From Desulfurococcales archaeon (lineage in GTDB: Archaea; Thermoproteota; Thermoprotei_A; Sulfolobales; Desulfurococcaceae), in contig JALVYU010000031.1 in assembly GCA_027022365.1 (NCBI GenBank), forward strand, positions 384,001 to 448,000: a stretch of 64,000 bases of DNA, given 5' to 3'. The notes beneath the pieces were generated by a model. The model made no database searches and had not been told where the DNA came from. It saw only the letters and a program-made list of their open reading frames with translations. Both the position numbers and the translations under genes were made by a program. Positions 1 through 18,020 of the stretch are shown here, piece by piece; within the stretch, counting starts at the first letter, position 1; each line of letters opens with the position of its first letter.

Positions 1-1
1 G

Positions 2-631
2 ATACAGGAGGGGCTTGACGAGAAGCTTCTCCGGCGAACCATCGCTATACTCGCCATAGTCATAGCTCTCTTCTTCCTCGAAGACGTGTTCAAGTACCCG
101 CCAGCCGTTCCCGCCATGATAGGGGCCGGGCTCCTCATGGTCTTTGTGAGGAAGAAGCTCTTGATAGAAGACATTATGAACTTCATCGACTGGACAACAC
201 TGGTGTTCTTCATGGCCATGTTCATAATAATCCAGGGAGTACAGGGGATGGGGTTGCTTGACTGGATAGCCATGAACATAATGGGCCTCACAACCGCGAA
301 GACAGGCCTTATACTAGTTATTACTTGGGTGAGCGCGTTCCTCTCGGCATTCATAGACAACATACCGTTCGTGATGAGCATGATCCCAGTAATAAAATCG
401 ATAACCACAACACTAGGAATAAACCCCCTGCCACTGTACTGGAGCCTGAGCCTTGGAGGATGCCTGGGAGGAAACGGTACAATGGTCGGAGCATCAGCGA
501 ACATCGTGGTAGTAAGCCTGGCGAGCAAGCTAGGGCACGACATAAGCTTCCGGGAATTCCTAAAGTACGGTATGACTGTCATGACAATAACAGTAGCAAT
601 AGCAACAATATACCTGCTGATAAGATACTAG
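2..631 (+). CDS. ArsB/NhaD (SLC13/IT superfamily) transporter, C-terminal part (5' end outside window)
   Basis: Frame open from base 2; hydrophobic; IDWTTLVFF, SAFIDNIPF and GGNGTMVGASANIV motifs typical of ArsB/NhaD permeases. Confidence 0.85.
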   Translation: MQEGLDEKLLRRTIAILAIVIALFFLEDVFKYPPAVPAMIGAGLLMVFVRKKLLIEDIMNFIDWTTLVFFMAMFIIIQGVQGMGLLDWIAMNIMGLTTAKTGLILVITWVSAFLSAFIDNIPFVMSMIPVIKSITTTLGINPLPLYWSLSLGGCLGGNGTMVGASANIVVVSLASKLGHDISFREFLKYGMTVMTITVAIATIYLLIRY

Positions 632-685
632 ACCACACAGTAATTCACGGCCACGAGACAATATACTGGTTCGAGGTCCTAGCCC

Positions 686-1273
686 ATGTGCTCACTTCCC
701 CCAAGACTCGAAAAAGCACTGAGAATACTCTCTGAGATTCTCTCCGGAATTGGTGCTAGGTGGGTATTAGTCGGGAGCACGGCGAGCTGTTTAAATGGTG
801 TCGAGGTCCAGCCCGAGGACATAGACGTTATCGTTGAGTCTGGCAAGGCCTACGAGGTCGACAGCGTTTTTGCCTCTCGCTTCCGGGTCTTAAGGAGGAT
901 GAAGTATAGCTCTAGCGAGGTATACTCGAGCCACTACGGGGTCTTCGAGATCCAAGGCGTCAAGGTGGAGGTTATGGCAAGCCTCAAAATATGTGGAGAA
1001 CCCGGCTGCCTAGAGGTAGAGTTCGATGAGCTTTACCGCTACTCTAAGAGCCTCAGGATAGAGGATACAGGTCTTAGGGTAGCGCCTTTAGAGTGGCAAT
1101 TAGTAGCTAATACCCTGATCCCGGGGAAGGAGAAACGCGTAGCCAAGATCCTCGAAGCCCTCAATACCAAAGGCGTGAATGTCGAGATCCTAGATAATGT
1201 GCTGGGCAAGGCCCCGCAAAAGACCAGAAAACACGTCATAGAACTCCTAAGAAACACCCACAAGATATACTAG
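686..1273 (+). CDS. Pol-beta superfamily nucleotidyltransferase domain protein
   Basis: VLVGSTA...PEDIDVIV (GS + DxD) and a third acidic residue in VKVEVM. Confidence 0.7.
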   Translation: MCSLPPRLEKALRILSEILSGIGARWVLVGSTASCLNGVEVQPEDIDVIVESGKAYEVDSVFASRFRVLRRMKYSSSEVYSSHYGVFEIQGVKVEVMASLKICGEPGCLEVEFDELYRYSKSLRIEDTGLRVAPLEWQLVANTLIPGKEKRVAKILEALNTKGVNVEILDNVLGKAPQKTRKHVIELLRNTHKIY

Positions 1274-1782
1274 TAAGAATACTTTCCCGCCTGGATAAGC
1301 AGGGCCAAGTTATTGACATTTTATTATTGCTCTACGTATATGGCTATGAGCTACTTAAGCATATCTGCATTGATCTTTTGGAAAACGTTATTGGTATATA
1401 TATCTTCCACCGAAACAGGGTCGCAATCGTATACAGCTATGTATCTACTATATAGTGGCGATAAGTATCCGAAAGGTCTTACAAGGTATTTTACGAGTCC
1501 TCTGGTTAAGTTGTCATTTTATATTAGTTTTGCCGCCCAATAAACACTATGCTCCAAAACATGCTTGCTAATCCATCTGTTGGTTTTGGAATGCTTACCT
1601 AGAATAATGGCTAGTCTTGAAACCGAGTATACTGAATACGGTTCTAGCCCTTCTTCATATATGATTCTCGGAATATCTGCTGAACCAAATGATATGAGAG
1701 CACCCATTGCGAAGGCAAGCTCGGCAAAACCATTGAGTACCGGTGTATAGCCAGTACCCCATTCTAAATGTACTCTTATTAT
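1270..1782 (-). pseudogene. Degraded ORF of unknown function
   Basis: One minus-strand frame reads protein-like (RVHLEWGTGYTPVLNG...WAAKLI*NDNLTRGLVKYLVRPFG...) across several in-frame stops. Confidence 0.35.
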
Positions 1783-1862
1783 TCATTTTGATATCTTATT
1801 CTGGATTTCTATACAGACATTTTTTACTTGGATTATGTATAATTATCTATTGGTGAATTTAC

Positions 1863-4805
1863 GTGGATTATCACATGGTTTTGGGTAGGGTTTTTAAAGA
1901 TATTTTGGCTGAGGAGTGTAGGAAGATTGGTAATAATTGCAGTATTGGCAGCAGTGTTTGCGAGATTTCTCATCCCGATTACTGTATTTCGTGGAATGAG
2001 CTGTTAGGTATTATCAAAAAGCATACTAGTGAAGACCCCTCTATTATTGCTCGAAAGCTTATTGGTGACGGACTAATTATTAGAATTAGCGACGATTGCT
2101 TTCGTTCTATATTTTTTGATTTACTTCTCAGGGCTAGTGATCTTAGGGTTAGACCTAATGATAGAAAGATGGTATTGTCTTCGTCATACAGTGTTCAGAG
2201 CCGTGAGGCACCCTCATATAGTGACCGTGTTATACTTCCCCGCAAAGAGATACGTGACGGTGAAAAATATCACGTGATTTCCAGGAAACTTTATGATACC
2301 ATAGCTAAACTATTACCTAATGACATAGTTGACGTGTTTATTGAGACAATCAGTAAATATTTTTGTAATAGAGGTTCAAGGGGATTTGATGCTTATCAAG
2401 CATACTCTATTTATGAGGCGTTGAATAAGCTTGATACATCGAGGGGTATTCTAATTGTTGCACCGACGGGTTATGGTAAAACCGAGATATTTACGGTAAT
2501 TGTATTAATTGATCTACTAAGAAACTTTAGTTCTGGGTGGAAATACATATTTGTGTATCCGAGGAAAATGCTTGAAATAGACCAGATGAGCAGGCTTGTA
2601 GAGCTTATAAGAATACTTAACCAGAGACTTTCTGGTAGAAAAATAAGGATCTATATCAGAGACGGCGATACAAACGACCTGAAGGACAAATACAATGATG
2701 CAAGACTGGGAGACCATATAAGGTTTCGAGGTATAAAATGCAGCGATAACGGAGAATTATTTATTGTGAAAACATCTACTGGACCGAGAGTTGTCTGTAA
2801 ATCGGGAGATAGAGAGGAAGAATATGATTTCATAATACCCTTCTCTGATCCTAGTACGATGACTAAGAACGCTGATATAATTGTCACTAATCTCGATACA
2901 CTATTCTTCGCGAGCTTCACCAAGCGGGGACACGACATTGATGTAAACGACATAATTAAGACAAGGCTCATAGTATTTGATGAAATACATGAATACGACT
3001 CTGTCAGGCTTGCACAGATTCATTATTGGCTGAAAATATTCTCTGCTCTCCAAGAAAAACTATTCGGTGAAAAAATCGTTGTTCCTATTCTATCCTCAGC
3101 AACAATACCTAATCCTATAAAATTTGCTTCAACACTGATAGGTGTAGATGAAAAAGAAATAATAGATCTTAGATACGATTTTATGCGCAGAAAATACAAA
3201 GACATTAAATTCAGTGGACACAGAGTAAAGATATACCTATTCATACAGACAATGCCATGGGTAAGCTGGGAAACTTACTTATCAGAGCTTTCAGCACTCA
3301 TACTTTACCTCCACAAAATCTACAGTGTAGCTAATCGACCCTATGTCCCCCAATCAATTTTCTTCGTGAACAACATTAGAGAAATAAATAGGCTCAAAAC
3401 AATAACCAGGCAAGCACTATCCCTTGGTTCACCCCTCGATATTCTATGTGTCAGGAAAGTAGAGTGCTCTGTAGAAGATTCACGTATGAAAAGAGATCAT
3501 TGTAGACACTACTACGAATACCTGACGCCTGACAATATCAAGAAGGAAATCAATGAGAGGATACAAGAAGATAGAAAGAGAGCAAACATCCTAGATCTTC
3601 TTATTGAGGGCTTGGATGTAGTATTCAGTAAAATACCTTTGAGTGAACGAGAAGAAATCTACAACAAGCTTAGGAGCAGAGAACTAGGAGTCGTATATGC
3701 AACTACTTCGCTTGAACTTGGAGTAGATTATCCCTACGTATCAATAATAGTGAATGCTGGGTTCGATAAGATAGAAAGCATGATACAGAGAATAGGGCGC
3801 GGAGGCAGAAGTTCTGAAAGTCTATGGACGATGCTCACCATAATACTTGCCAGGAATAATCCCCTAGACTACAGGTTGTTCTCCGACACAATAACCCGTG
3901 AAAAAATAATAAGAGAAGATGTAAGTAGTGAAAGAAAAATCTATATATCAAAGGATCTCTTCCCAGTTAAGACAAACATGTTACTGAAAAGCATTCTAGC
4001 CTATAGTATTATACATAGGAAATCACCCATACTCTACGGTGGAAGAACACTCAATAAACATGAGGTCTTAAAACAGACAATAAATGAAATGATCAATATA
4101 CTTAAAGACACAGGATTCAGGGAATTCGCAATAAGGGAAGCAAGAATAGTTGATGAAAATGAATACGAAGAAGTCAAGAATGGACTAATAAAATTATTAG
4201 AGATAGTAGAGCAACCAAACATTGCCAGACTCATGGAAGAGCTAAGCGTAGAATACGTATCAATAGAAAACATGATCCAGAACCTCTACGGGCTACATAG
4301 TATCCTCAGCGAGCTCAAAAACAATATCGAGGAAAAAATACAGAAGCACATGCGCGTAGAAGATCCTGGCCTCCGGAAAATAAGTAGAGTTGCTGAGTCA
4401 ACCATTAATACTGTGAAAGATTACTTGAATATATTACTGGAATATATTAATGTATTAGAGAAAATTGTCCCCGCGCAAGCCGATGATATAATCTATTATA
4501 GCCGGTTCATAGAGCTATCTGAGATATACGAGTTCGTAAATAATGCTATCAGAAGAGTAGATGAAATAATCAATCTGGACGAGAGAAACCACGTAGAAAG
4601 GGAAACAGTAGTAGCTAAGTTGAGGACTCTATTAAACACTATTATGATGTATGATTCTCAGAAATTATGGAACGACACGAGAATACTCATAGAGAAAATC
4701 CTCAGCGATATAACGAGACCCAAATACCATGTATCATTCATGCCTATTTTGAAAAAACTCGTAGAGCTAAAGAAAGATATCGAGAAAACACTTGGTAGGG
4801 TGTAG
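1863..4805 (+). CDS. SF2 DEAD/DEAH-box helicase, DpdJ/DrmA-like
   Basis: Motif I APTGYGKT, Ia YPRKML.DQ, II DEIH, III SAT, V ATTSLELGVD, VI QRIGRGGR; helical C-terminus. Confidence 0.85.
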   Translation: MDYHMVLGRVFKDILAEECRKIGNNCSIGSSVCEISHPDYCISWNELLGIIKKHTSEDPSIIARKLIGDGLIIRISDDCFRSIFFDLLLRASDLRVRPNDRKMVLSSSYSVQSREAPSYSDRVILPRKEIRDGEKYHVISRKLYDTIAKLLPNDIVDVFIETISKYFCNRGSRGFDAYQAYSIYEALNKLDTSRGILIVAPTGYGKTEIFTVIVLIDLLRNFSSGWKYIFVYPRKMLEIDQMSRLVELIRILNQRLSGRKIRIYIRDGDTNDLKDKYNDARLGDHIRFRGIKCSDNGELFIVKTSTGPRVVCKSGDREEEYDFIIPFSDPSTMTKNADIIVTNLDTLFFASFTKRGHDIDVNDIIKTRLIVFDEIHEYDSVRLAQIHYWLKIFSALQEKLFGEKIVVPILSSATIPNPIKFASTLIGVDEKEIIDLRYDFMRRKYKDIKFSGHRVKIYLFIQTMPWVSWETYLSELSALILYLHKIYSVANRPYVPQSIFFVNNIREINRLKTITRQALSLGSPLDILCVRKVECSVEDSRMKRDHCRHYYEYLTPDNIKKEINERIQEDRKRANILDLLIEGLDVVFSKIPLSEREEIYNKLRSRELGVVYATTSLELGVDYPYVSIIVNAGFDKIESMIQRIGRGGRSSESLWTMLTIILARNNPLDYRLFSDTITREKIIREDVSSERKIYISKDLFPVKTNMLLKSILAYSIIHRKSPILYGGRTLNKHEVLKQTINEMINILKDTGFREFAIREARIVDENEYEEVKNGLIKLLEIVEQPNIARLMEELSVEYVSIENMIQNLYGLHSILSELKNNIEEKIQKHMRVEDPGLRKISRVAESTINTVKDYLNILLEYINVLEKIVPAQADDIIYYSRFIELSEIYEFVNNAIRRVDEIINLDERNHVERETVVAKLRTLLNTIMMYDSQKLWNDTRILIEKILSDITRPKYHVSFMPILKKLVELKKDIEKTLGRV

Positions 4806-4809
4806 TATT

Positions 4810-7215
4810 ATGGTTTTTCCTATAAATCCGCATGATGCCGTCAGAGAGGGAATAAAACTATTAAATTTCATAAATAAGGCTACTGGCTGGGACAAGTTTG
4901 GATCAGAACCGTACATTGATACGATCAAATTACTCTATACTGATAGCAGGGAGGAAGATGAGATCACCTTCTACGATCTCTTCTATAGGCTTCCACCCTT
5001 TGAGCCCATAGCTTATCCGGATACCAGTTATGGTAATGCAAAGTTTACAGGCGATAGACTATGGGTTCTCGATGTAGTAGAGATGATTAATCATGGTAGA
5101 CTAAAAAAGATATGTAGAAGTCTTAAGAGGAGTATGTGTATTCCGTCTAGATGTGATTACAGTATTGAGGGAATTGTACGTGGAGACCGAGTGAAATTAA
5201 CCCATATCATTGTCTTCAGGATAATTGGTGATCTTGATGGAACACTTACCCTCAGATTCATCAAAGATAACAAATACTACATTATACAGTACGGGTTCTC
5301 ACCTGAAACGATCAATGTAATTAAGAGAGATATTTGTAAAGAAATAGGATGCGTTGATGAGAGATTTGTAGACATAATATCTAAGAAATGGAAAGACATT
5401 GAAAAAGCTATAATGCAAAGATATACGCCCAGATACGATATTAACATACTGAACTATATAACCTATTGTTATAATGGAAGATACATAACAACAGACCCTA
5501 TTATACAATATATGGGCGGAAAACACATTAGGTGTCCGCCTTGTCGGAATCAGAGATTTTCGAGGCTTTTCATATGTAAAGATTTTCCTGGTCTAGGCAG
5601 GTTTCACTACAGCCGCAAAATATTCCCTAAAGTATACGTAAACATAGAGCCGGAGATAATATACTCTTTTAACCAGAGAAAATCCCCGCTCACAATAGAT
5701 ATTGCCGACAAAATAAGGATTATTTCACAGGTATCCAGGTTAACCCTATATCTTCCAGGAAACAATATTCTCGAACTAGAGCCTGGTATTAAACCCTACA
5801 CAGACCTTGTCAGAACAAGAGGCCTCATAGTCTACATCGGAAAAGACTTCGTGAAAGCAATTATATCTTACTTACTGGATGTGGACAAGGAATTATTAAG
5901 GATTCTTGCAACCAAGTACATTGTACTTAAAACCAGTATGTTCAGGCTCGGCTCATCGAAATCTGATACGGGAAGAGGAATCCTCGATCACGATCAAAAA
6001 CGCATTGAATTTTATGCCGGTGAAGAACCCATCATAGACCTTGTAAACGATATATTGAAGACGCAAAATATCTTCTCAGAGAGCTTCGTAGACTATGTGG
6101 GATCTGTTTTAATGCATACTATATCACATTTATTATTAATGGAGCTCAGCAGAAGACTCGGAATAGATCCGAATAAGATCTCATACGTCTATGGTGCACA
6201 TATTCTTGGAAATGGAGACAAAGTATACTTTGCAGCCATTGTTGAGAAAGACAAGTATGGAACAATAATGTTCAATAGAGCGATTAGAGAGCTCCTCCAA
6301 GAGCTTGGGGAAGGCGATTATGAGAGAGGCTTTTACAGATTACTGAAAGATATAAATAACTATGTCGCTTCTATTGTGAAGAAATATGAACGCGAATACA
6401 GAGCCTATATAAAGGAAAACGAATGTTCTTTATTATCAAGCGATCTAAACGATCTTGAGAAAAAAGTGCTCGAATTCATTATAGACATTATAGTGGCTAC
6501 GAGGAGATATCTAGAATCTAATAACGTCTATCCTGATTTTTCCATATTTAAACATATCATAGTGTCTTTGCTAAATACTCATAACACAGAGGTATACGGC
6601 CACATCATCAACTGGATCATGTATAAGTTAAAAGGAGAGATAAAGGACAAATATGAGCTACAAGGAATAGTCGAAGACATTATTGAGAGAAAACTCGAAT
6701 CACTGCTACTATGCTACGGTCCCGATTACTGTCTCGATGGTTGTAGCCTAGACATACATTTAGAGAAGGATTGTACAAAAGCTATGACGGAGAATCTTGA
6801 AACAAGTAGGAGGCTATTTGAAGCATTCGCTCGCTTAATAGGAATAAGCGAAGATGTCATTAATTCTCCTGTGAAAGGAATAACTATCTACAGACTCATT
6901 ACGACAGCCAGGAAAAGCTTGTCCATAGAGACTTCGCATACAAATGACCAGGCAATTGACGCCCTAACTAATCTCCTCGAAAAAGGAGTGAGAGTACATA
7001 TCACGATCGATAAGAGAATTATCAAGGAGGTAGAGGATAGACTTAGAAAACTCAAAAACATGTATGGTGATAGATTCACGTACAAAGAGTCGGAAAGGCT
7101 TATGCATTATAAGACATATGTTGTAGATGACACCCTAAGAATAGAGACATCATGGAATTACTCCACTGCATCAAATATTGAGCAGGGAATGATCATTAAA
7201 AATCTCTTGGTTTAG
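4810..7215 (+). CDS. DUF1998/MZB-like domain protein fused to a C-terminal phospholipase D-family nuclease domain
   Basis: HTISHLLL...ISY..., later CLDGC..D.H...C (DUF1998-like); C-terminal HYKTYVVDD (HxKxxxxD) and ETSWN; ATG 4 nt after helicase stop. Confidence 0.75.
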   Translation: MVFPINPHDAVREGIKLLNFINKATGWDKFGSEPYIDTIKLLYTDSREEDEITFYDLFYRLPPFEPIAYPDTSYGNAKFTGDRLWVLDVVEMINHGRLKKICRSLKRSMCIPSRCDYSIEGIVRGDRVKLTHIIVFRIIGDLDGTLTLRFIKDNKYYIIQYGFSPETINVIKRDICKEIGCVDERFVDIISKKWKDIEKAIMQRYTPRYDINILNYITYCYNGRYITTDPIIQYMGGKHIRCPPCRNQRFSRLFICKDFPGLGRFHYSRKIFPKVYVNIEPEIIYSFNQRKSPLTIDIADKIRIISQVSRLTLYLPGNNILELEPGIKPYTDLVRTRGLIVYIGKDFVKAIISYLLDVDKELLRILATKYIVLKTSMFRLGSSKSDTGRGILDHDQKRIEFYAGEEPIIDLVNDILKTQNIFSESFVDYVGSVLMHTISHLLLMELSRRLGIDPNKISYVYGAHILGNGDKVYFAAIVEKDKYGTIMFNRAIRELLQELGEGDYERGFYRLLKDINNYVASIVKKYEREYRAYIKENECSLLSSDLNDLEKKVLEFIIDIIVATRRYLESNNVYPDFSIFKHIIVSLLNTHNTEVYGHIINWIMYKLKGEIKDKYELQGIVEDIIERKLESLLLCYGPDYCLDGCSLDIHLEKDCTKAMTENLETSRRLFEAFARLIGISEDVINSPVKGITIYRLITTARKSLSIETSHTNDQAIDALTNLLEKGVRVHITIDKRIIKEVEDRLRKLKNMYGDRFTYKESERLMHYKTYVVDDTLRIETSWNYSTASNIEQGMIIKNLLV

Positions 7216-7237
7216 ATTTTATAGCGCCCAATGCTTT

Positions 7238-8479
7238 CTAAACAACAATACTACAGCCCTTACGTAAAAGGTCGATGAAATAATATTCTCCCCAGCCAAT
7301 TATTCCGGTTGATAACTTGTTTAAATTTTTCATTTTAACTCCTTGTAAAGGGCTCCATTTTCCCCTGGAGGGCCATATATGTGATTTACCATATTTTAGA
7401 AGCGGCTTTGGAGGAACAAGTCCTATTTTAATAGTATTACCTCTTCTATGTTCCATGAAAATACTTCCCATTAATCTATTAATTGTCTCCAATACTATAT
7501 CTCGTGCATCCTTTTCTTCGATTAATTCTTTCAGGCTAAAACTATTAAAGACTTTCATAAAAATGATACTACACATGCTGACTAAATCGTTTAAATTAAC
7601 AAAGATACCTCCACAAGTTTTCTTATTTATATATAATATGTAATATGATAGTAGCAAGAGGTTTCCAGCAAGAAATAATTTAAACGTGTCATCAGAGAGG
7701 TTAAGTCTATCAATTATAACATTTCTTGTCTTCACTCCATCATAGACGTTTGCAAGTAGATAGACACCATTGTCTACAAGATCATCCGTTAGACAATTTA
7801 TCTCTATACTACCTCTGCGAATATCGATTAATCGAGTTAAGCTGTCGCCTCTTCTTTTAACATAGTAGACTTCGAGGACCCCACTACAAGCGGGGTAAAG
7901 ACCCATAAAGTGTGTTTCTTTTACATTTCCGAAACATTTGTGTATAGTGATTCTCCCTGTTACAAGCCCCAATGATATATCAAGTTCTGGATTCTCGGGA
8001 TCCTTTATGAATGATAATATTCTATTTGATAGAATTAGGTTATTACTATATTCTTTGTAGATTGGAAATCTATGGAGTATTGTTTTCGAGTAAAAATAAT
8101 TCTCGATATATTTTCTCTGCATACTTGTTAATTTTCCTGTATTAAAAGGTTTGAGGGAACCATACGTTAGAAGCCATTTCCTTCTCACGAGTCTCGGAAG
8201 ATCTTTAGGGTATTTTGTCCTATAGTAGGAATGCTTTCTAAGATCTATTCTGCCGGTATAAGATATGCCGATAGTTACATTGTTGATAATATCCTCTAAT
8301 AATATAAGATTATACTTTAGTCGAGTGAATGATGGGTGCTCTGGGTATCGTTGATATAGATTTTTAATAATGGTTTTTCTTCCCAGTATCTCTGATAGTT
8401 TACAGAGTGTTGTCTCTGTATCCTTCAGACGTTCTGCTAGTTTGAACCAGTCTATATAGCACTTATTACTGGAAGACAT
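7238..8479 (-). CDS. Hypothetical protein downstream of the DNA methyltransferase
   Basis: Long ORF in AT-rich island, start 14 nt after MTase stop; no recognised motif. Confidence 0.7.
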   Translation of the reverse strand: MSSSNKCYIDWFKLAERLKDTETTLCKLSEILGRKTIIKNLYQRYPEHPSFTRLKYNLILLEDIINNVTIGISYTGRIDLRKHSYYRTKYPKDLPRLVRRKWLLTYGSLKPFNTGKLTSMQRKYIENYFYSKTILHRFPIYKEYSNNLILSNRILSFIKDPENPELDISLGLVTGRITIHKCFGNVKETHFMGLYPACSGVLEVYYVKRRGDSLTRLIDIRRGSIEINCLTDDLVDNGVYLLANVYDGVKTRNVIIDRLNLSDDTFKLFLAGNLLLLSYYILYINKKTCGGIFVNLNDLVSMCSIIFMKVFNSFSLKELIEEKDARDIVLETINRLMGSIFMEHRRGNTIKIGLVPPKPLLKYGKSHIWPSRGKWSPLQGVKMKNLNKLSTGIIGWGEYYFIDLLRKGCSIVV

Positions 8480-8493
8480 CACTATACAGCCAC

Positions 8494-10347
8494 TTATAGA
8501 TCGAGTATGCATTGTTTCCTTAACAAATGTACTATTCTTTCTACTTGTTTTTCTTCTCTATCCCAGTCTATTCCTTTGTCCACATGTTTTTTCTTTGTAA
8601 TTAAATACTTAGTCTCTCTGAAGTCTTTGATAATATTATCTATTATTTGATCTATTGTGGTTGGCTCATACTTAGCCCTATTGAAGACCATAGCGTATAC
8701 TCCCCTGGTCCTAGATCTTCCAAGTTTTCCGGGGGCTTCTCCTATGAACCAATAAATGTTTACTGGTTTGAGCTTCGTGTATATTATTGTCGCGTTTATG
8801 ATTCGTGGTAATATCTTGGCGTATTTTGTGCTGGAAATACTTATGAGCAATACATAGTAGCTGGGTGTATGTTTCCACCTTGAAAGTACTTTAACGAATT
8901 GCTCATAGAACTCAATATATGCCTCTGGATCAGATAGGTTGTAGGTTTCTTGGCTCCTTGTATCTCCTGACGGCTCATCAACTAGATCTAAGAAGTAATT
9001 GTATAGGAGGGACATATCAATGTATGACTGATACCCTGGATAAGGGGGATCAGTTACTATCGCGTATACTTCTCCGTCATAAATGTATTTCGTGCTGTCT
9101 TGCCTTAGAACCATGTAGTCACCGCTAAAATCTATTTCCTTACCAAAGCATATTTTCTGGATAATTGCGAGTTTCGATGCCAGTGTTCCCCTTCCTATAC
9201 TGTATATTTTTCCATTCCTTAATCTATGTGCAAAGGGGTTCAGCTCTACGGGGTTTTCGGGTAACCAGTAGCTCTTTATTATTAGTCCTGGATTAACCTT
9301 TGCGTATGGTTGGTAATATATCGCTAAAAGAGAACATGTTCTAGCAGTATCTCCCACTATTAAACCAGCTATATCCCTACAGTTTGGTGGTGTTTTCTCT
9401 ATGAATTTTATTAAGGAGATATATTGTCTCCAAGTGAATAGTTTTGAGTACTCATATATGCCTTTATTAATTAATCTCTTTGTCTCCTTCAGCAGAGGTA
9501 TTTTCTGATCATACTTTGAAGCTAGTTCAACATATTTATTCTTAATGCTTTCTTCTTGCATAGCAAGATGCCTTCTAATAATCTCCGATGTCTTGTCACT
9601 ATCGTCTAGTAGGCTATAGAATTTTCTCTCACCACTAGTTGTTAGTATTTCAACAGCATATGCTCTATAGTTATCATGTACTTTGGGGAGTTTATCTGCT
9701 GGTAGATTTATCTTTGGCTCTCTCGGTTTTATTTCACCGTATTTCTTGATCTCTTCTTTATCGATCCATTCAAGCCTACCATTTTCCCTCAGTACAAGAT
9801 ATTTATCTATCCCGTTATTTCTCCTCTTAGATGAGACCCATAATGGTGCGCGGCAAGGTGGACAACGAGAAAGGAATACATGTATTATCTCTCCAATCCC
9901 TGGTATTCTCCAAAGATACCTCGTCTCTCTATATGCCTCCACATATCCTTTTAGGAGACAGGAGTATATGTCGAGGCAACTCGTCTTCCTAGCTAATTTT
10001 AGGGTTGACTTAACTATTAGTTCCGCTGCTCGGTCGATGTCTATGCCTACTATGTTATAGCCTAGTCTTAGTGCTTCGAATACTATTGTCCCTCCACCCA
10101 TGAAGGGGTCCAGGATCCTCTTGCCCCTCGTTGAACCCCAGCATCGATAGGGGTCCTTGAGACATGCCATCATCTCGGAAACTCTTCTCGTCGATAACGA
10201 CGCCAGTAATGCTCTGCTGAGAAGAAAGAATCTTCTACCCCACCACTTAAACACATTGTATGGATTACTACGTCTACCTTTCTCTGCTAGGATAGACCTA
10301 TATGATATTTCGGCAACTATGCTTGGAGGAAGATTCTCTATCAGCAT
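8494..10347 (-). CDS. DUF1156/COG1743-type amino-DNA methyltransferase (probably m6A) with Zn ribbon
   Basis: FKWWGRR N-terminal motif, SAM-binding LDPFMGGGT, CPPC, catalytic IVTDPPY. Confidence 0.85.
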   Translation of the reverse strand: MLIENLPPSIVAEISYRSILAEKGRRSNPYNVFKWWGRRFFLLSRALLASLSTRRVSEMMACLKDPYRCWGSTRGKRILDPFMGGGTIVFEALRLGYNIVGIDIDRAAELIVKSTLKLARKTSCLDIYSCLLKGYVEAYRETRYLWRIPGIGEIIHVFLSRCPPCRAPLWVSSKRRNNGIDKYLVLRENGRLEWIDKEEIKKYGEIKPREPKINLPADKLPKVHDNYRAYAVEILTTSGERKFYSLLDDSDKTSEIIRRHLAMQEESIKNKYVELASKYDQKIPLLKETKRLINKGIYEYSKLFTWRQYISLIKFIEKTPPNCRDIAGLIVGDTARTCSLLAIYYQPYAKVNPGLIIKSYWLPENPVELNPFAHRLRNGKIYSIGRGTLASKLAIIQKICFGKEIDFSGDYMVLRQDSTKYIYDGEVYAIVTDPPYPGYQSYIDMSLLYNYFLDLVDEPSGDTRSQETYNLSDPEAYIEFYEQFVKVLSRWKHTPSYYVLLISISSTKYAKILPRIINATIIYTKLKPVNIYWFIGEAPGKLGRSRTRGVYAMVFNRAKYEPTTIDQIIDNIIKDFRETKYLITKKKHVDKGIDWDREEKQVERIVHLLRKQCILDL

Positions 10348-10474
10348 TAATTATCCCTTTTCCAATCATAAGCCCCGGCTCAAAACCTAATATATGGTAG
10401 TATATTATGTAAGATAATATAAGATAATAATTGTCAACAACTAGTCATGAAAAATACTAAGTCGGTGCATTATT

Positions 10475-11902
10475 ATGCCGCATTTCGTGTTAAAACTGAA
10501 AAACTATGGTCCTTTCTCAAGCCTCGATCTCGTTGTAAAGCCTTTGACAATAATAATTGGAAGAAATAGCCTTGGAAAATCTATGTTATTATATCTTCTA
10601 TGAGGTCTTGGAAACATCTATCACGGAGAAATCGATCTAAGGAAAATATACGGGGAGGAGGCTTACATAGAGAAAATCAATAGGATCAGCAGGTATATTA
10701 TTGATGGGGGCCTTAGCGAGAAAGGCGTCCAGGATCTATTAATGGAGTTCATGTTTGAAGCTGTTAAGTCTTTCGATAGACTTGTTACAATGAATTTTGG
10801 CGAGGTTCTCGCTAAAACCTATTGTGTTAATTCGCTTGACGATCTCGTGAAGAGGGGATAGAGGGAGGCGACAATAAGTCTTAGAGGTCCTTATGGCGAG
10901 TTAGAAATCACTATTAGGAACGGGAAGGCTGAAGCATCATGGATAGATGTTGCCATTGAAGAAGCATTGGCGGATATCGCGGATAACATGGTTGAATATG
11001 ATAAAGACAAGAAGACCCTAAAGATAAACATTGGAGATAATAAGCCGTTAGCCATGAGTATGCAGAACTATGAAGATGTTAGATTATTCGTGGCTGAAAA
11101 AGTGGTTCCAGCAGTGATTGAGCATATAATAGGCTTCTCTCATTTCCACGAGGATAAAGTTATACTCGTAGATGGTAGAGCAGGTATTATGAGGGCTCTG
11201 AACAGGCTTTACAGCATCCTTACAGAGCAGCAGCTTGCCTTTCTCAGCATGGTAGATAGAGAGTTTTTGAGGAAAACTAGAAGCTTGTTCGAAGACTATT
11301 TCGTCGGAGAATACGATGTAGAGACGGACCTGCTTAAAGACATTTACAGGGAATTTGGTATATTAGACATTGTTCCTAGATACGAGGCAGGTATTAGAAA
11401 AATCTACGTGAAGCTATGGACAGGCATCTATCAGTCTCTCGAAGAATCCCCAGCAGGAATTAGAGAAATACTGCCTCTGGTCATTAGTTTAATCAGCACT
11501 AGGCTGAAAAACATCTATGTCGAAGAGCCTGAGGCCCATCTTCATCCAGGAGCGATATGGGCTTTATCCAAGATCATAGGATACGCTGTCTCTCAGAGGA
11601 AGACAAACATATATATGACAACGCATAGTGACTACCTCGTCTACTGTATAAACATACTTATACAAGTACACCGAGTAATTGGGAGGAAACATCTTCAAGA
11701 AGAACTGAGCAAGATAAACATAGATCCGAGAGTAGGCATAGACCCCGACACTGTTTCAGCATATCTTCTGCGCCGTGAAAACGATAATGTTGTCGCCGAT
11801 AACCTTGTAATAGGCGAGGAAGGTATTGATGAAAAACACTTCTCAGACATCATAACAGAGCTTGCAGTGAGGAGAGAATACATTGACACGATTGCAAGGT
11901 AG
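10475..11902 (+). pseudogene. ABC/AAA_15-type ATPase interrupted by two nonsense codons
   Basis: ATG 10475, KNYGPF, Walker A GRNSLGKS; in-frame TGA 10601-10603 and TAG 10859-10861; same frame continues to Walker B/D-loop VEEPEAHLHP and H-loop TTHS. Confidence 0.85.
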
Positions 11903-12320
11903 GAAGACCAAGTCATCAAAGCCGATAATAATAGACCTAGACAAAGTAATTGACAAGAAAAAACTCGGTGAAAACAAAAAGTATGCCGATAAAATATTCG
12001 TCTACAATGAACAGATCTTTGTCATAGAGGAAGCGAAGAAACCCAAACTAAAAGACGTAGACCAAGTAATCGAGACAATCAAATCCCTCAAATCTAGGCA
12101 CCCCGCCTACGAGCAGGTGATCAATATCATAGAGAAACACTGCAGTCATATAGAAGATCATATACACGGAATAGTTCACGGACTCAAAAGCGTCGACTCT
12201 ATGGTAGCGAAATATGCCTCGGAGAATAAGGAGACGATAGTCCCAGTAAACTGCAATGAAAAACTATGGTGCACAATCAACCAACTCACAAAGAACAAGA
12301 ATTATCAAAACAGTCCTTAA
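11883..12320 (+). CDS. Small putative PD-(D/E)xK nuclease-like partner of the ATPase
   Basis: YADKIF...VIEEAK...DVDQV pattern; overlaps ATPase stop. Confidence 0.5.
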   Translation: MTRLQGRKTKSSKPIIIDLDKVIDKKKLGENKKYADKIFVYNEQIFVIEEAKKPKLKDVDQVIETIKSLKSRHPAYEQVINIIEKHCSHIEDHIHGIVHGLKSVDSMVAKYASENKETIVPVNCNEKLWCTINQLTKNKNYQNSP

Positions 12321-12522
12321 CTCTATTTTGTTATTACAGTAATTATGAGAAACGCCGTTCTATGGTCTAGAGCCCATATCCAACACCTACTACGATACAC
12401 CATCACTCTACATCGGGTTATTTGTATTATTTCAAGTACATAGTCTATGCTGAAGGCATTATAAGATCCTATGGGTGGAAAGATTAATTGTTCTTAAATG
12501 ATTCATAGATATTTAAATGGTG

Positions 12523-12752
12523 ATGAAATTGTCTAGAGTCATAAGGGTAAGATATGAAGGGGGGTCCTTAAGCCTCTTAAGCCTTTAGGATTAATGGAGG
12601 GGGAGGAACTTATCGTAGAGGTAAAAGAGATGCTTGGTAAAAAGAGAGGGGTAAGGAGGTTCTTTGGAATAATAAAGACCAAGGACTCTAAACCGGGAAG
12701 AGAGGAAGACTATTATGGACATCTCTCGGAAAGATGTCATATTTCTAGATAG
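12523..12752 (+). pseudogene. AF2212/DUF104-family antitoxin with frameshift in a G6 run
   Basis: SRVIRVRYEG|GVLKPLKPLGLMEGEELIVEV matches the paralog at 13501; one G missing at ~12559-12564. Confidence 0.75.
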
Positions 12753-13177
12753 TATTTTCGTTATTCTTGGAGGTTCTATCGCTAGGGACATTATAGAGGG
12801 TTCTTCGAGGTTTGCAATTAATTCGGTAGTCTTTAGTAAGATATCGTTTAATCTCTTGAAACTACTATATGAAGAAAAATTCGGAGAATACCGCTTCTAT
12901 AATATGAAATCAAGCCTATTGGCGCGAGATTACGATGTTTTTAAAAGGTTATGAAATAGCTTGGTCTTTCCTGGATGAACTATATAGTAAGGACAGATTG
13001 GTGTTTATCTCCATAACCATGCAAGTAGTAAGCGACGCTGCTGAAATAGCTACAAAATATAGACTACTGCCCAATAACGCACTAATAGCAGCAACATGTA
13101 GGCACTACGATATAAACAGCATAGTAACTTTCGACGAAGACTTCAAAAAAGTACCATGGCTCAAAGTGATTCCCTAG
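12715..13177 (+). pseudogene. vapC: VapC/PIN toxin, frameshifted
   Basis: VIFLDS in 12715..12954; LLPNNALIAATC...IVTFDEDF in 12935..13177; frames join at the TTTTTAAAA run near 12938-12946. Confidence 0.8.
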
Positions 13178-13302
13178 TTCCATGAGAATATTATCGATCA
13201 GGATTATCAACGGTGAAGTAAAAGGACTATAATTCCCTACTCAGATTCAAAAACTATGACTCCCCTATAGAATAAACAAGACCAATGCAGGGAATTTATG
13301 AA

Positions 13303-13351
13303 TAGCGAGCCTACAGGGATTTGAAACCAGATCCACTATTTCCAGAGGCTG
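13303..13351 (-). other. Possible decayed tRNA 3' half (att-site relic)
   Basis: Minus strand cagcctctggaaatagtggatctggtTTCAAATCCCtgtaggctcgcta resembles anticodon arm, T-loop and acceptor strand of an archaeal tRNA (Arg-like ...GGGCCCGCCA). Confidence 0.35.
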
Positions 13352-13500
13352 ATGGATAAATACTTAGTTTTATTGCATAGAGTAAAGCGGGATCTGCAAC
13401 AATGCCAGGAAAATGATTTAGTAAATTTGTGGCTGCAAACTTATTCCATCACAACATGCTTTAATCCTTCGCAACTATAAATATAGTCGGGTGTAACTGC

Positions 13501-13698
13501 GTGTCTAAAGTTATTAGGGTTAAGTACGAGAATGGTATATTGAAGCCTTTAGAGCCAGTAGATCTAGAGGAAGGAGAAGTAGTCTTGGTTACCATTAAGC
13601 GTGATATAAGGAGAGTGCTCAAGAAATATCGAGGGATTCTAGGAAGAACATCAATTAGAGAACTCCTAGAAATCGAGGAAGAGGCTCATATTCAATGA
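13501..13698 (+). CDS. AF2212/DUF104-family antitoxin
   Basis: MSKVIRVKYENGILKPLEPVDLEEGE signature; ATGA overlap with PIN gene. Confidence 0.9.
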   Translation: MSKVIRVKYENGILKPLEPVDLEEGEVVLVTIKRDIRRVLKKYRGILGRTSIRELLEIEEEAHIQ

Positions 13699-14157
13699 GG
13701 CTAGCTTACATTGATACTAGCTTCATACTTAGCATCCTCCTGGAAACCGAGAAGAGCGGTCTGGCCGAGCAAATCTTAGAAGCACACAGCGACCTACAAT
13801 TCATGATTTCAGGAATTGCAGTTAATGAAACCCTCTATGTCGCAACTTATGAGTACTACAAGCAGAAAGGAATGATTAGGGGGAGATACGGTTTAAGAAA
13901 GTTAATTGCGAAGCAAGGGTATCCTAAATAAGGTAATAGATACAGTAGTCTCCTTCCTAAAAGATCTAAACGTCGAAATGGTAAGTGACTATTTCGACTA
14001 TAACGAATATTTCCAAATAATACAAGATTTTAAACTCCTTCCTAATGATGCCTAGATAGCATTAACTTGTCGGCACTATGGCATCAACATCATCTTAACT
14101 TTCGATGAGGACTTCAAGAGGGTTTCATGACTTAAGATTATCCCACAGAGGGGATAG
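13695..14157 (+). pseudogene. vapC: VapC/PIN toxin with frameshift and nonsense codons
   Basis: AYIDTS...NE; TAA/frameshift ~13929-13932, TAG 14053-14055 (LLPNDA*IA), TGA 14128-14130 (TFDEDFKRVS*LKIIP). Confidence 0.85.
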
Positions 14158-14760
14158 ACTAAATCAATATTATCACAAACATATAGAGAGTCCATGGTGT
14201 TTTACAATTTTAATTCTTGTTTATAATTACAAACTGAATACCTCATCCTAGAATGACGGGTTTTCATTATCAATTAGCCTGGTATTTTTTAGCTTCCGAT
14301 TTCCCTACATTCTTAATAGCATGCCCTAATAACTTTATAATACCCGCTCCTCGGCATCCAGTCCCTATTTTATAAATATCATTGCAAACAAGCCGTGGCA
14401 TGTATAGTCTCCATGTGGAATCTACGCCGAGAAAATAACGGTAATAAATGGCGGGCAGGCTGGAAAACTCGGTGATCTATGATTAGAAGGTGTTAATGGT
14501 ATAGTTGCTTTTGAAGAGAGGTGGGGAGAATACTTAAGTAGCGGGCCTACTGGGGGTTACGGCTCAAGGATCATTTGCCGATGGCGGGAAAACAAAAGCC
14601 ATGAGTATCTTGTCAATAAAGCCTTGGAGTTTGGAGTTGTTCTAGGAGTGGCTTATAGTTGATGGGGCGGGACATGGGTATTGTCCTGAGAGCTGTAAAG
14701 TCCTTGTGGCTGTAGGTTTGGGTTATGGATATGGGTTGTCTTCCGGTCCTGGATCGAGGA

Positions 14761-15684
14761 CTATGTCTTCTTGCTAAGCTCATAGAGTGCTGCGGCTAAG
14801 TATGATATGAGGCCTGCGTAGCTAGTGGTCTTGCTAATTAGTTCTTTGCGGCAACCGGCGAGCCTAAGGCCTCTTCTTACTGCTAGGTCTTCGGGGAGGA
14901 ATATGTCTAGGTTGCCTGTGTAGGCCATGTAGGCTAGCTTGGCTGTCCAGGGCCCAACGCCTCTTAGCCCGATTAGCTCATCGATAGCCCTCCTAGGCGG
15001 TAGTCCCCCTATTTTTTCGAGATCGTATCCCTGCCTGACAATGGCTTCGGCTATCCCGATCACGTACTCGGCCTTCCTCCTACTGAGCCCTATGTTTCTG
15101 AGTTTTTCGGCGCCTGCGTCAAGCACTTTCAATGGTGTTGGGAAACCGTAGAGTGTCCTGTTCTTGCTGATGCTTATTTTTTCGCCGAGACGCTCGACAA
15201 GCTTGGATGTTATCCGTAGGGCCAAGTATATGGGTAACTGTTGGTTCACGATGGCCTTTACCAGCGACTCCCACATACTCGGGTTTAGGGCTGGCCTCAG
15301 GCCAGGGTACTCCTCGATCATCCTTCCTAGGCCGGGGCATATCTCTATAATCGTGGATGTATCGGGGTATACATATTCTGTGTTCAAGACATGCTTGACT
15401 ATTTTTACAGCGGTTTCGGGCGGACCACAGATTACGTGTATTTTTATTAGCGGCTCCCACCCCTCGCTAAGAATCGTTGCCTCATACGCTACCTCTTCCT
15501 CAACACCCCACGTAACTAGTCGTGCGCAGGATCTCGACTCCTCATCATAGATGCACGGCGTCGGCCTGTTCTTCAGCGTGAATTGCTTCAGGTGCGGCGT
15601 TATTGTGTAGGGTGCCCGCGGCTTAATCACTATCACTGGCTCCTCGTCATGGACATCTCTAGTAGTCACTATGTCTCGCCTCAC
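14761..15684 (-). CDS. alkA: DNA-3-methyladenine glycosylase II (HhH-GPD family)
   Basis: WESLVKAIVNQQ, FPTP, GLSRRKAEY, HhH LRGVGPWTA, PEDLAVRR. Confidence 0.85.
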   Translation of the reverse strand: MRRDIVTTRDVHDEEPVIVIKPRAPYTITPHLKQFTLKNRPTPCIYDEESRSCARLVTWGVEEEVAYEATILSEGWEPLIKIHVICGPPETAVKIVKHVLNTEYVYPDTSTIIEICPGLGRMIEEYPGLRPALNPSMWESLVKAIVNQQLPIYLALRITSKLVERLGEKISISKNRTLYGFPTPLKVLDAGAEKLRNIGLSRRKAEYVIGIAEAIVRQGYDLEKIGGLPPRRAIDELIGLRGVGPWTAKLAYMAYTGNLDIFLPEDLAVRRGLRLAGCRKELISKTTSYAGLISYLAAALYELSKKT

Positions 15685-16111
15685 AGAACACTATGTGGTT
15701 GACGAGTAATTATCTTAAGGCCGTTATGGAGCTGGGAGAACCTAGTATCCAGGACGGTTGAAGCCAAAGTATTGTTCCCCTGTAAATCCCGACCTAGCAA
15801 TTACGGTTCCCCCATAAGCCTCGGCTTTCACTGGTTACCACGGCTTAGAAGCATACTTCACGGCCAATTATCGTTCCAGCTGTCGGCTTGGATGAACGGG
15901 AAAAATACATAGTCTCGAGAATAACTAAATTGCATGCTTAGCTTTCGTACACATCCCGGAAATAGATACTGAATATACCGAATCTTTCAGAGCTATATGT
16001 TCTACCATGCATAGCGTGTTCGCCTTGAGGAGGGGAATACTGGGCTGAGGGTTCTCCCAAGAATTATTAATTGGAAAAACTGTCTGGGTCTATGTGCCTG
16101 GCTTGCGTACA

Positions 16112-16867
16112 CTACTTCCTGAGCTTTACGGGCTGTTTCTTCTTTAGCCCGCTGTAGAGTAGGCTGAACGATAACGCGAAGAACAGGATGGAGGAGGCCA
16201 GTGTGATGATGCTGAGCAGTGATAGTTTGTGGTATGTCTTGACCGCTATTCCTATCAATGCTATTGTCGCAGCCATTATTATCAGGCTAGTAATGATGTT
16301 TTCGCGAGGGGTTCTGAGAACCACCTTGTTGCCGCGGGGATCAACGGGTCTGCCGCAGTGGGGGCACTTGAAATACTCTATCCTAGAACCACATATGGGG
16401 CATGTATCAAGCCCTACCGGGAGAGAATGGTTGTTCCCACACTTGACTACATGAAGGGAGAGGTCGCCACCGCACCACGGACATGTTAAACGATTATTGA
16501 AGCGACGATAAACATTTAATAGGATTGTTCTCACAATGCTGGGCTTACCCCTTACTAGTAAGAACAGATTCGGTTTAAGCCTGGCAGCCCCTGTATAGTT
16601 GCTGGGTGTTTCTGTACTAATTATAACATATTCTTCGCCACTAGTAGCAGAATATCCGTGATAACTATTGATCATATCGGTTGCCAGGGCGGCTAACTCC
16701 TCAGCTTTTTCCTGATCAATGTTCTTGCCCCAGTACAGCGGGTATCCATCGAGAACAACGACGTATTCGTCCACACCGTCTATACTGGAGATATAATCGT
16801 TAATAGCTTTTAGGGGATCAGTGCTGTTAGTGGCTAAACGACTCATCACGTTCACCCATTTATCCAC
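16112..16867 (-). CDS. Roadblock-like domain + double zinc ribbon + two C-terminal TM helices
   Basis: SIDGVDEYVVVLDGYPL...AEELAALA (Roadblock-like); CPWC, CGNNH, CPIC, CPHC; two hydrophobic helices then basic tail. Confidence 0.7.
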   Translation of the reverse strand: MDKWVNVMSRLATNSTDPLKAINDYISSIDGVDEYVVVLDGYPLYWGKNIDQEKAEELAALATDMINSYHGYSATSGEEYVIISTETPSNYTGAARLKPNLFLLVRGKPSIVRTILLNVYRRFNNRLTCPWCGGDLSLHVVKCGNNHSLPVGLDTCPICGSRIEYFKCPHCGRPVDPRGNKVVLRTPRENIITSLIIMAATIALIGIAVKTYHKLSLLSIITLASSILFFALSFSLLYSGLKKKQPVKLRK

Positions 16868-16957
16868 CGATCAGCTACTATGATCTACGATTATTGAGAC
16901 TAGTTAAGCTAGTTCTACTTAGGAGAAAAAAGTAAAATAAAAATATTATAGGTTTTT

Positions 16958-17479
16958 TCACCTGACAATAACCTTTATAATTAGCGGCTCTTCCGGCGAT
17001 TTCATAGGCTCTACCTGTATCCGTACATTAGCCTTTGCGTTTTTCTTCCTGAGCACCTTCCTGATGACATAGGCGGCTATGAAGGACTCAGGTGATAGTG
17101 TGAACTTTATACCTTTCCTCTGTAGTAGGAGTGCTACCGGCTTAAATACGCTGTCATACACCTTTATAGTATAGACACTACCGGATGATGCCTTGTCCCC
17201 TGACACTTCCACCTCAACTTTTTCACTTACCCCTGTCAGCTTGAAGATTTTAGGTATATCCTTCTCTAGATCCTCTACATCGCCGAGCTCCACTCCGAGA
17301 TCCTTCAGCATCTCATCCGCTATTTTCGTGACTTCCCGAAGTATCAGCTGCGTGAGCGCTGCTGAGCCGGAGCCTAGTACCTTCGAGAGCGCTAATTGAT
17401 ACATTGCTATAATGGCGTTTATAGTACCGGTTGGGATCTCCTTCTTATCCGACAAATCAAATCTTCCCTCGCTCGCCAT
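16958..17479 (-). CDS. V4R/TRAPP-like alpha/beta domain protein
   Basis: Helical N-half (ALSKVLGSGSAAL), then VEVE...YTIKVYDSVF...LSPESFIAAYVIR pattern of archaeal V4R-like proteins. Confidence 0.5.
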   Translation of the reverse strand: MASEGRFDLSDKKEIPTGTINAIIAMYQLALSKVLGSGSAALTQLILREVTKIADEMLKDLGVELGDVEDLEKDIPKIFKLTGVSEKVEVEVSGDKASSGSVYTIKVYDSVFKPVALLLQRKGIKFTLSPESFIAAYVIRKVLRKKNAKANVRIQVEPMKSPEEPLIIKVIVR

Positions 17480-17504
17480 GATTATCGACCTAACGCCCCT
17501 CTTA

Positions 17505-17867: not shown

Positions 17868-18020
17868 TTACTTCACCTGTTAGAGAAACTAACTTTGGTA
17901 GTCTCTTAATGCGGTGGTCGCTTATTAAGATTTTCGTTTTAATAATCAGCTGTGATTCAAATGGATTTTTATATAATAGATTATAACATATAAATAACTC
18001 TGTAAATTAAATAAGATTAA

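Follow-up and report, generated by a model that had tools for sequence, protein, structure and literature searches.

A four-gene cassette occupies positions 1863–10347 of a 64,000-nucleotide stretch (the window, positions 384,001–448,000 of the forward strand of contig JALVYU010000031.1, assembly GCA_027022365.1) from a Desulfurococcales archaeon, a hydrothermal-vent member of the Thermoproteota. The cassette encodes a helicase, a protein that joins a DUF1998-type module to a PLD nuclease, a DUF1156-type DNA methyltransferase and an orphan fourth component. It is best read as a single methylation-based defence cassette of the DISARM kind, which is carried in a variable island, and with its four-part mechanism included this reading is given a probability of about 0.6. 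The cassette is an unnamed DISARM-like variant, in which a methylase of the type seen in BREX-related systems is combined with a new fourth protein, and it probably labels host DNA and destroys invaders that are without the label.

The genes form two convergent pairs. P0001 (1863–4805, 980 amino acids (aa)) and P0002 (4792–7215, 807 aa) are on the plus strand, while P0004 (8494–10347, 617 aa) and P0003 (7238–8512, 424 aa) are on the minus strand. The stop codons of P0002 (TAG, 7213–7215) and P0003 (reverse-strand TAG, 7238–7240) are separated by a gap of 22 nt, in which no terminator-like site was found. The GC content is 0.34–0.41 over positions of about 1300–14200 and 0.47–0.50 on either side. 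As all four proteins align end-to-end and free of stops with homologues from other genomes (20–63% identity), the four genes are real and intact. An earlier note, made from the letters of this DNA, had described four intact genes arranged as two convergent operons, whose stop codons are 22 nt from each other, within an AT-richer island. The open reading frame (ORF) coordinates are the same as in that note, and the stops and GC content agree with it.

P0001 is a YprA/MrfA-family superfamily 2 (SF2) helicase, a DrmA-like motor whose DUF1998 module lies in a separate gene. Pfam identifies DEAD, Helicase_C and ResIII domains but no DUF1998 part, and about 280 aa at the C-terminus are without a Pfam match. 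The best PDB sequence matches are YprA/MrfA (6znp), followed by Lhr, and when the profile of the 14-member helicase family was compared to the PDB, YprA/MrfA again ranked first, with 91 bits. The Walker A motif (APTGYGKT, residue 200), the DEIH box (residue 373, window 2979) and motif VI (QRIGRGGR, residue 642) are conserved in 14 homologues. P0001 is a YprA-family motor encoded apart from the OB-CON-DUF1998 “canopy”. The helicase of the earlier note is borne out by Pfam. The further view that it is closer to DpdJ is weakly supported. In its favor, the best family-specific match is to DpdJ, which is partial and covers RecA1 with its insert (PADLOC, 68 bits over about 260 of 1487 model positions, compared to 52 bits for a partial DrmA match; NCBIfam NF041067, 53 bits against a cut-off of 800, model positions 154–423 of 1482). 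A helicase homologue from the distant clade scores 86 bits with the PADLOC DpdJ model. In contrast, PMC12458937 treats both the split between helicase and DUF1998 module and the retention of the 4-Cys cluster as traits of DISARM.

P0002 is a DrmB-like protein fused to a DrmC-like nuclease in one chain, because its model matches MrfA and DrmB in fold, the 4-Cys cluster is kept and the PLD domain is Nuc-like. Residues 1–687 (4792–6852, plus strand) comprise the DrmB-like OB-CON-DUF1998 module, which was defined using the AlphaFold2 (AF2) model, VIA-align and alignment invariants. Residues 688–807 (6853–7215, plus strand) comprise a single-HKD, Nuc-like PLD nuclease domain, defined by Pfam, PADLOC, a PDB profile and fold search. 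By alignment, the likely true start of the protein is the ATG at 4810. The AF2 model has a pLDDT of 78 and a pTM of 0.75, and among 48,161 PDB chains its sole non-PLD matches with Z ≥8 are MrfA and DrmB. With MrfA (6znp_A; Z 11.2, root-mean-square deviation (rmsd) 4.3, 244 residues aligned), model residues 38–684 superimpose on chain residues 490–749, which is the OB-CON-DUF1998 module. Residues 51–686 of the model match DrmB from the DISARM DrmAB complex (7s9w_B; Z 9.0, rmsd 5.2, 290 aligned). These matches came solely with VIA-align; Foldseek, using the whole model, returned PLD proteins only. The 4-Cys cluster consists of C641, C647, C651 and C661 (window 6712–6774). A second cluster, C226, C248, C251 and C262, is invariant in the alignment, and an HTxxH motif is present at residues 442–446.

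The C-terminus of P0002 matches PLDc_2 with 33.3 bits against a cut-off of 27, and this is the only Pfam domain found in the protein. The PADLOC DrmC model gives 33.5 bits, a PDB profile search finds Nuc (1byr, E 1e-4), and Foldseek together with VIA finds Zucchini, Nuc, BfiI and SauUSI with Z of 9–12. The PLD motif, HxK(x)4D, is at residues 772–779 (window 7105), and H772, K774, D779 and N789 are invariant. In the model, the stretch from the Cys cluster to the PLD domain has no evident 4-helix bundle. The DUF1998–PLD protein of the earlier note is upheld: its DUF1998 part is missed by Pfam and supported by the structure match, and its PLD part is supported by Pfam and by fold.

P0004 (8494–10347, minus strand) is a DUF1156-type amino-methyltransferase, similar to HmaB/MtsC and assigned using hhalign, Pfam and motifs. 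Its motif order is that of the alpha class (I, target-recognition domain, IV). WWGRR is at residue 35, motif I (DPFMGGG) at residue 80 (window about 10090–10110), CPPC at residue 162 and motif IV (DPPY) at residue 433 (window 9040–9051), well after motif I. The S-adenosylmethionine-binding motif I and the catalytic DPPY are invariant in four close methyltransferases, and DPPY is also present in the consensus of 10 cassette methyltransferases. Pfam identifies N6_N4_Mtase (37 bits), and no C5 or PglX-like match was found with Pfam or PADLOC. The family profile, compared to the PDB, matched only motif-I stretches of other methylases. For DUF1156 itself, Pfam is sub-threshold (2/4 members, best E 0.018; 12.3 bits for P0004 against a cut-off of 24). 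Support came instead from a comparison of profiles, for which 10 bona fide DUF1156 proteins of 881–1021 aa, from genomes of the same phylum, served as the reference. Ten cassette methyltransferases match this reference with a probability of 100 and E of 9.5e-41 over 544 columns, with query positions 5–583 corresponding to template positions 5–682 of 914. As this alignment stops at template position 682, P0004 is a genuine but shortened DUF1156 enzyme, which lacks the final roughly 230 profile columns, or the C-terminal third, of the canonical proteins. The DUF1156 assignment proposed earlier is supported by the same comparison.

P0003 (7238–8512, minus strand) is the orphan fourth component, a fast-evolving protein of 424 aa, or probably 413 aa, as alignment places the likely true start at Met12 (8479). 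No family was found in Pfam or PADLOC, and NCBIfam gave two chance-level rows (E 0.04–0.07). PADLOC also had no match for six other fourth-gene proteins. The profile of P0003 has 6 relatives among 1.84 billion representatives, which confirms the earlier description of a fourth protein without a known family. The AF2 model (pLDDT 75, pTM 0.82) has a weak best Foldseek match (E 7.6e-3). VIA aligns it to the OB-type barrels of HIN, RPA, BRCA2 and LEF-3 with Z of 4–5.2, the top match being the HIN tandem OB (Z 5.2), and to a winged helix at residues 271–368 with Z of 3–4. The predicted fold, tandem OB-like barrels followed by a winged helix, is a weak lead toward DNA binding. No nuclease fold was seen among the fold matches of the model, the orphan family profile found nothing significant among PDB sequences, and the P0003 profile matches none of the helicase, PLD or methyltransferase profiles. 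The idea that P0003 is the split-off C-terminal part of DUF1156 proteins was unsupported (hhalign E 0.43–0.85). A LAGLIDADG lead, from ESM Atlas clusters at 0.88 and under the 0.9 mark, was dropped because the fold search does not echo these clusters.

That the genes belong together is seen in related loci, which were drawn from species genomes, metagenome contigs and a 401-genome sample of the phylum. After duplicates were merged (L001=L008; L003=L005=L009; L012=L013; L016=L017) and L002, a 2-kb helicase fragment, was excluded, 15 distinct loci in two clades remained. Clade A (the window, L001, L004, L003, L006, L010 and L019) has helicases of 916–1007 aa and PLD proteins of 807–871 aa. Clade B (L011, L012, L014, L015, L016, L018, L020 and the G083 locus) has helicases of 711–805 aa and PLD proteins of 971–1015 aa. 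A fourth gene of 405–481 aa adjoins the helicase–PLD genes in 14/15 loci, with L019 being cut. The methyltransferase family is present in 12/15, and the loci without it are L006 and two whose contigs end at or inside the locus (L014 and L019). Identities between methyltransferases of different loci extend down to about 22%. Pairwise distances correlate between helicase and PLD protein (r 0.87), helicase and methyltransferase (0.76) and PLD protein and methyltransferase (0.77), values which shared host ancestry may inflate and which were reached in 0/5000 permutations. The order of the genes is not fixed: L003 has an inverted methyltransferase, clade B loci have it either divergent upstream or convergent downstream, and in G083 the fourth gene precedes the helicase. 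The flanking genes are unrelated from locus to locus. The four families stay together across deep divergence and despite differing flanks. The earlier note named helicase–PLD pairs that do not co-occur with this methyltransferase as grounds for its refutation, and this check came out in its favor.

This linkage bears on the possibility that two independent systems lie back to back: a methylation-independent helicase–nuclease effector and a Type II-like restriction–modification pair, with the orphan as the restriction endonuclease. Co-directional pairs of methyltransferase and orphan, overlapping or nearly so, do occur in three loci (the window, L001 and L004). Restriction enzymes are typically without detectable homologues, as the orphan is, and L006 keeps helicase, PLD protein and orphan with no visible methyltransferase. 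In L006 and L010, however, the orphan adjoins the PLD gene and not the methyltransferase, and L003 has its orphan and methyltransferase in opposite orientations. In clade B, the fourth gene adjoins the helicase–PLD genes in 8/8 loci, following the PLD gene in 7 and preceding the helicase in G083. It overlaps the PLD gene where coordinates were read, and the methyltransferase is on the other side of the helicase–PLD genes in 6/7 loci where it was seen. In addition, the methyltransferase family both co-occurs and co-diverges with the helicase–PLD genes, and the orphan model has weak OB/winged-helix likeness and no nuclease fold. Two separate systems are therefore considered quite unlikely, and the observations fit a single cassette better.

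A further proposal is that the helicase and PLD nuclease sense the invader by DNA structure only, that is, by single-stranded DNA or 5' tails, with the methyltransferase being regulatory, vestigial or a decoy and not a marker of self. Here, precedent exists in DISARM, which restricts phages without methylation sites and whose DrmAB complex selects 5'-overhang DNA using a trigger loop (PMC9142583). DUF1156 enzymes need a C-terminal domain and an AAA+ loader, both of which the methyltransferase here is without, and L006 has no visible methyltransferase. Against this proposal, motif I and DPPY are invariant as described above, and the gene is kept in 12/15 loci despite identities that fall to about 22%. 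Methylated DNA also lowers both ATPase activity and targeting in DISARM, as reported in PMC9142583. Sensing by structure only is accordingly thought unlikely, and methylation retains its place in the preferred reading of a single DISARM-like cassette.

The mobile cassette rides in a variable island. Window positions 1357–12418, which hold the cassette and a neighboring two-gene ATPase module, are absent from the genome of a same-genus archaeon (G404). When its contig (G404:C7, locus L058) was compared to window positions 1–18000 using blastn, positions 1964–3320 of L058 corresponded to window 1–1356 (87%) and 4524–5274 to window 12419–13167 (85%). In this genome about 1.2 kb of unrelated DNA replaces the island, with collinearity on both sides, and tblastn of the genome found none of the four cassette proteins. 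The cassette was also not found in 16/16 other sampled genomes of the same family. A full-length relative occurs in 2/401 sampled genomes of the phylum. Near-identical DNA is present in hydrothermal-vent metagenomes of four studies, possibly including the source, and a 19-kb metagenome contig from another study covers the left flank and the cassette as far as 9403. As to marks of the border, the window contains no tRNA, an integrase was not seen among the ORFs scanned, and there is no flanking direct repeat; Rfam families were absent from window 1–16000. Cassette relatives were not found in the viral contigs or plasmids searched, nor were relatives of the orphan found in phages, where the search was made with the orphan only. 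No RNA dataset carrying the locus was listed among the sequencing runs.

The same distribution speaks to whether the genes could be a housekeeping DNA-repair module similar to MrfAB, with the methyltransferase as an unrelated neighbor. The repair helicase MrfA is, after all, the best solved relative of the helicase core and of the N-terminal, OB-CON-DUF1998 part of P0002. MrfA (YprA) is however a single chain that has an exonuclease partner, MrfB, and no methyltransferase, and it is not island-borne. The genome of the window already has, at another place, a canonical DUF1998 helicase in one piece (frame of 767 aa, PF09369, 58 bits). The cassette, in turn, is missing from the same-genus genome and the other same-family genomes, and it is found in low-GC DNA amid defence-type genes, linked to the methyltransferase family in 12/15 loci. 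A role in repair is on these grounds scarcely credible.

Among named systems, the closest to the cassette is of the DISARM kind. DISARM is composed of DrmA, DrmB and DrmC with either DrmMI/DrmD or DrmMII/DrmE (Ofir et al. 2018, via PMC9142583 and PMC12458937). In both, the helicase gene is separate from the OB-CON-DUF1998 gene (here P0001 and P0002), the DUF1998 module retains its 4-Cys cluster (at the level of the fold, C641/C647/C651/C661), a PLD nuclease follows this module, and the locus contains a DNA methyltransferase and one extra protein without an assigned function. In sections 7 and 8 of PMC12458937, a YprA-family helicase split from its OB-CON-DUF1998 part is consistently seen only in DISARM. 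The two differ in that DrmB and DrmC are fused in one 807-aa chain in the cassette, while drmC is a separate gene in DISARM. The cassette falls outside the DISARM definition on the type of methyltransferase, on DrmD/DrmE and on the separate DrmC.

The restriction module of the 7-deazaguanine Dpd system, DpdJ and DpdK, is similar in that DpdJ provides the best family-specific hidden Markov model (HMM) match of the helicase and that a PLD nuclease is associated. Furthermore, both are placed in the “DISARM-like clade” in the legend to Fig. 1 of Bell et al. In DpdJ, however, helicase and canopy form one chain of about 1480 aa, from which the 4-Cys cluster has been lost (PMC12458937), whereas the cassette is split and has kept it. 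There is also no full-length DpdJ in the cassette (53 bits versus 800). Neither dpdA/B/C nor 7-deazaguanine genes were found in the island, to which the search for dpdA was confined.

DUF1156 methylases are described as members of Hma, MANTIS and DUF499-centered BREX-related systems (PMC12839542, PMC11232893). These share with the cassette a DUF1156 methyltransferase (HmaB in PMC11232893; the N6-methyltransferase of BREX-related systems in PMC12839542), where the equation of MtsC with DUF1156 is taken from these papers and not from a sequence comparison here. The effector side of Hma, MANTIS (Gao_RL) and the BREX-related systems also pairs an SF2 ATPase with an HKD/PLD nuclease. In these systems the two are one protein, HmaA/MtsD, whereas they are in different proteins of the cassette, whose helicase is of the YprA type and whose PLD domain is fused to the DUF1998 module and not to the helicase. 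A second difference is the loader. The genome of the window, which is 99.97% complete, is without the DUF499 AAA+ ATPase, called MtsA or HmaC (PF04465, 0 matches, with control genomes matched as expected), and P0004 is without the C-terminal roughly 230 columns. As for MtsB (DUF3780, found in Type-2 only), no such small gene was recognized in the island, and no search aimed at MtsB was made.

The interpretation of the earlier note is supported in substance. A full match to a named system would have refuted it, and this check too came out in its favor, as full-length matches were absent from both PADLOC and NCBIfam. Its statement that dpd genes, drmD/E and DUF499 are not seen holds for the island and, for DUF499, for the whole genome as well. 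The term “undescribed” holds for the main texts searched, where no description of the combination was found, but the supplements of PMC12458937 and PMC12839542 may list the clade.

Several findings weigh against assigning the cassette to the DISARM kind or against its functioning as one unit. Its methyltransferase is DUF1156/alpha-class and so is neither the PglX-like DrmMI nor the C5 methylase DrmMII. The SNF2 protein DrmD is missing, there being no SNF2 gene in the island, as is a recognizable DrmE. The DISARM HMMs give weak partial matches (52 bits for DrmA) and reach no threshold. Pfam finds DUF1998 (PF09369) in 0/7 members of the P0002 family, P0002 included, and P0002 reaches 16.5 with the NCBIfam DrmC equivalog, whose cut-off is 133. 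DrmC is itself reported to be non-essential in DISARM (PMC9142583). The methylase of MANTIS, which has a flexible C-terminal domain, requires the AAA+ protein MtsA and MtsB for loading and activity (10.64898/2026.09.23.753747). As neither an AAA+ ATPase nor MtsB is seen here and canonical DUF1156 enzymes need both, P0004 might be inactive alone. In L006 there is no methyltransferase within 10 kb downstream or in the 1.6 kb upstream, where the contig starts. Finally, hhalign could not demonstrate homology between the clade A orphan and the fourth gene of clade B (E 0.13–0.35).

In the mechanism proposed for the cassette, which follows the inference of the earlier note that methylation marks self and a helicase–PLD complex restricts invaders, the methyltransferase would N6-methylate adenine in a short motif of host DNA, thereby marking self. 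The helicase and P0002 would form a heterodimer similar to DrmAB, which is activated by a 5' overhang and whose ATPase activity is lowered by methylated DNA (PMC9142583). This complex would load on single-stranded or 5'-tailed parts of unmethylated invader DNA and translocate using ATP. The tethered PLD domain would then pair with a second copy, producing one active site that cuts the DNA. More speculatively, the orphan could be a DNA-binding adaptor, which would either provide target recognition or substitute for the AAA+ loader (DUF499/MtsA with MtsB).

A more ambitious version of this scheme sees a novel archaeal lineage, in which a DUF1156 methylase has been freed from its AAA+ loader and joined, through the OB/winged-helix orphan, to a DISARM-type helicase with a nuclease-bearing canopy. 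The motor and orphan would then both license self methylation and drive restriction. Coupling of this sort, if true, would be unseen in DISARM, BREX or MANTIS. It is viewed as unlikely.

As a four-protein system, the cassette is compact enough to ask how a YprA-type motor discriminates methylated from unmethylated DNA and whether a DUF1156 methylase can work without an AAA+ loader. It shows an exchange of parts between the DISARM/Dpd helicase–nuclease cores and the DUF1156 methylases of BREX-related systems, families that are usually treated apart. The DrmB–DrmC fusion speaks for a direct physical action of the PLD nuclease on the helicase complex, whereas in DISARM DrmC is dispensable. The setting is one of hyperthermophilic archaea, a group in which tests of defence systems have been few. 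The family is rare (2/401 genomes, and for the orphan 6 in 1.84 billion), which is why standard annotation misses the cassette.

Several observations concern the related loci. Compared to clade A, the helicases of clade B are shorter by about 250 aa, while its PLD proteins are about 170–215 aa longer at the N-terminus, and these differences suggest a shift of the gene boundary. When the clade A helicase C-terminal domain was aligned to the clade B PLD N-terminus, hhalign returned a probability of 22% and an E of 9.5e-4 over 59 columns only. The locus L016/L017 (1268–2878, 3035–5266) has a clade B helicase (37–45%) and a 536-aa methyltransferase that is 30–34% identical to clade A and 22–24% to clade B, an apparent swap of methylases between the clades. 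Three remote modules, L055 (G188), L056 (G361) and L057 (G206), have a related helicase of 685–964 aa, a PLD protein of 719–881 aa and one or two short DUF1156-like methyltransferases of 357–489 aa. L056 and L057 also have an extra adjoining gene of 428–473 aa for which no family is given. They raise the possibility that the phylum holds a broader superfamily of cassettes of this sort. In G083, a complete genome of the same phylum (L054, G083:C1:729000–748000), the clade B module is made up of a fourth gene (470 aa), a helicase (739 aa), a PLD protein (971 aa) and a divergent methyltransferase (612 aa). A canonical DUF1156 gene of 1021 aa, itself beside a 1064-aa ORF, lies about 1.5 kb away. 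As the module adjoins this gene, both kinds of DUF1156 methylase coexist side by side.

Defence-type genes neighbor the cassette in the window, L003 and G083. In G083 this is the canonical DUF1156 gene. In L003, a Desulfurococcaceae locus, a Cas_APE2256 family gene (9226–10110, Pfam E 6.4e-34) directly follows the cassette, so that this is also a defence neighborhood. In the window, the cassette is followed by an AAA_15/AriA-like ABC ATPase (10475–11902, plus strand) and its partner, a 145-aa gene (11883–12320, plus strand), which are 51% and 50% identical, respectively, to a 499-aa/142-aa pair that flanks the cassette in L001. The ATPase frame contains an in-frame TGA at 10601–10603. As 4/4 other runs read G at 10603 (TGG), the gene is either broken only in the window sequence or affected by an assembly error. 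Other ORFs flanking the cassette are a gene of the nucleotidyltransferase (NTase) type, which like the ATPase and its partner was scanned, and, further on, small ORFs that are VapBC-like by eye.

Populations differ to the right of the island, where the contigs of 3/4 runs join 13135 to 14107 and so omit 971 bases. The segment 13136–14106 is a presence/absence variant between populations, and it holds small ORFs (13501–13931) that are VapB/VapC-like by eye. A 19-nt inverted repeat (603–621 and 10685–10703, 95% complementary) brackets the cassette, its arms being 10 kb apart. Contigs of runs X3 and X9 depart from the window sequence after 601, and X3 contigs do so again after 10591 and 10603; the loose-end sequence was not found elsewhere in the window. 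The repeat and the departing contigs may be due to chance or to an alternative arrangement. Further to the right, the 307-aa gene at 14761–15684 has a homologue in the same-genus genome (G404:C7:16360–17272), which is probably a pseudogene, as it is in three pieces with in-frame stops.

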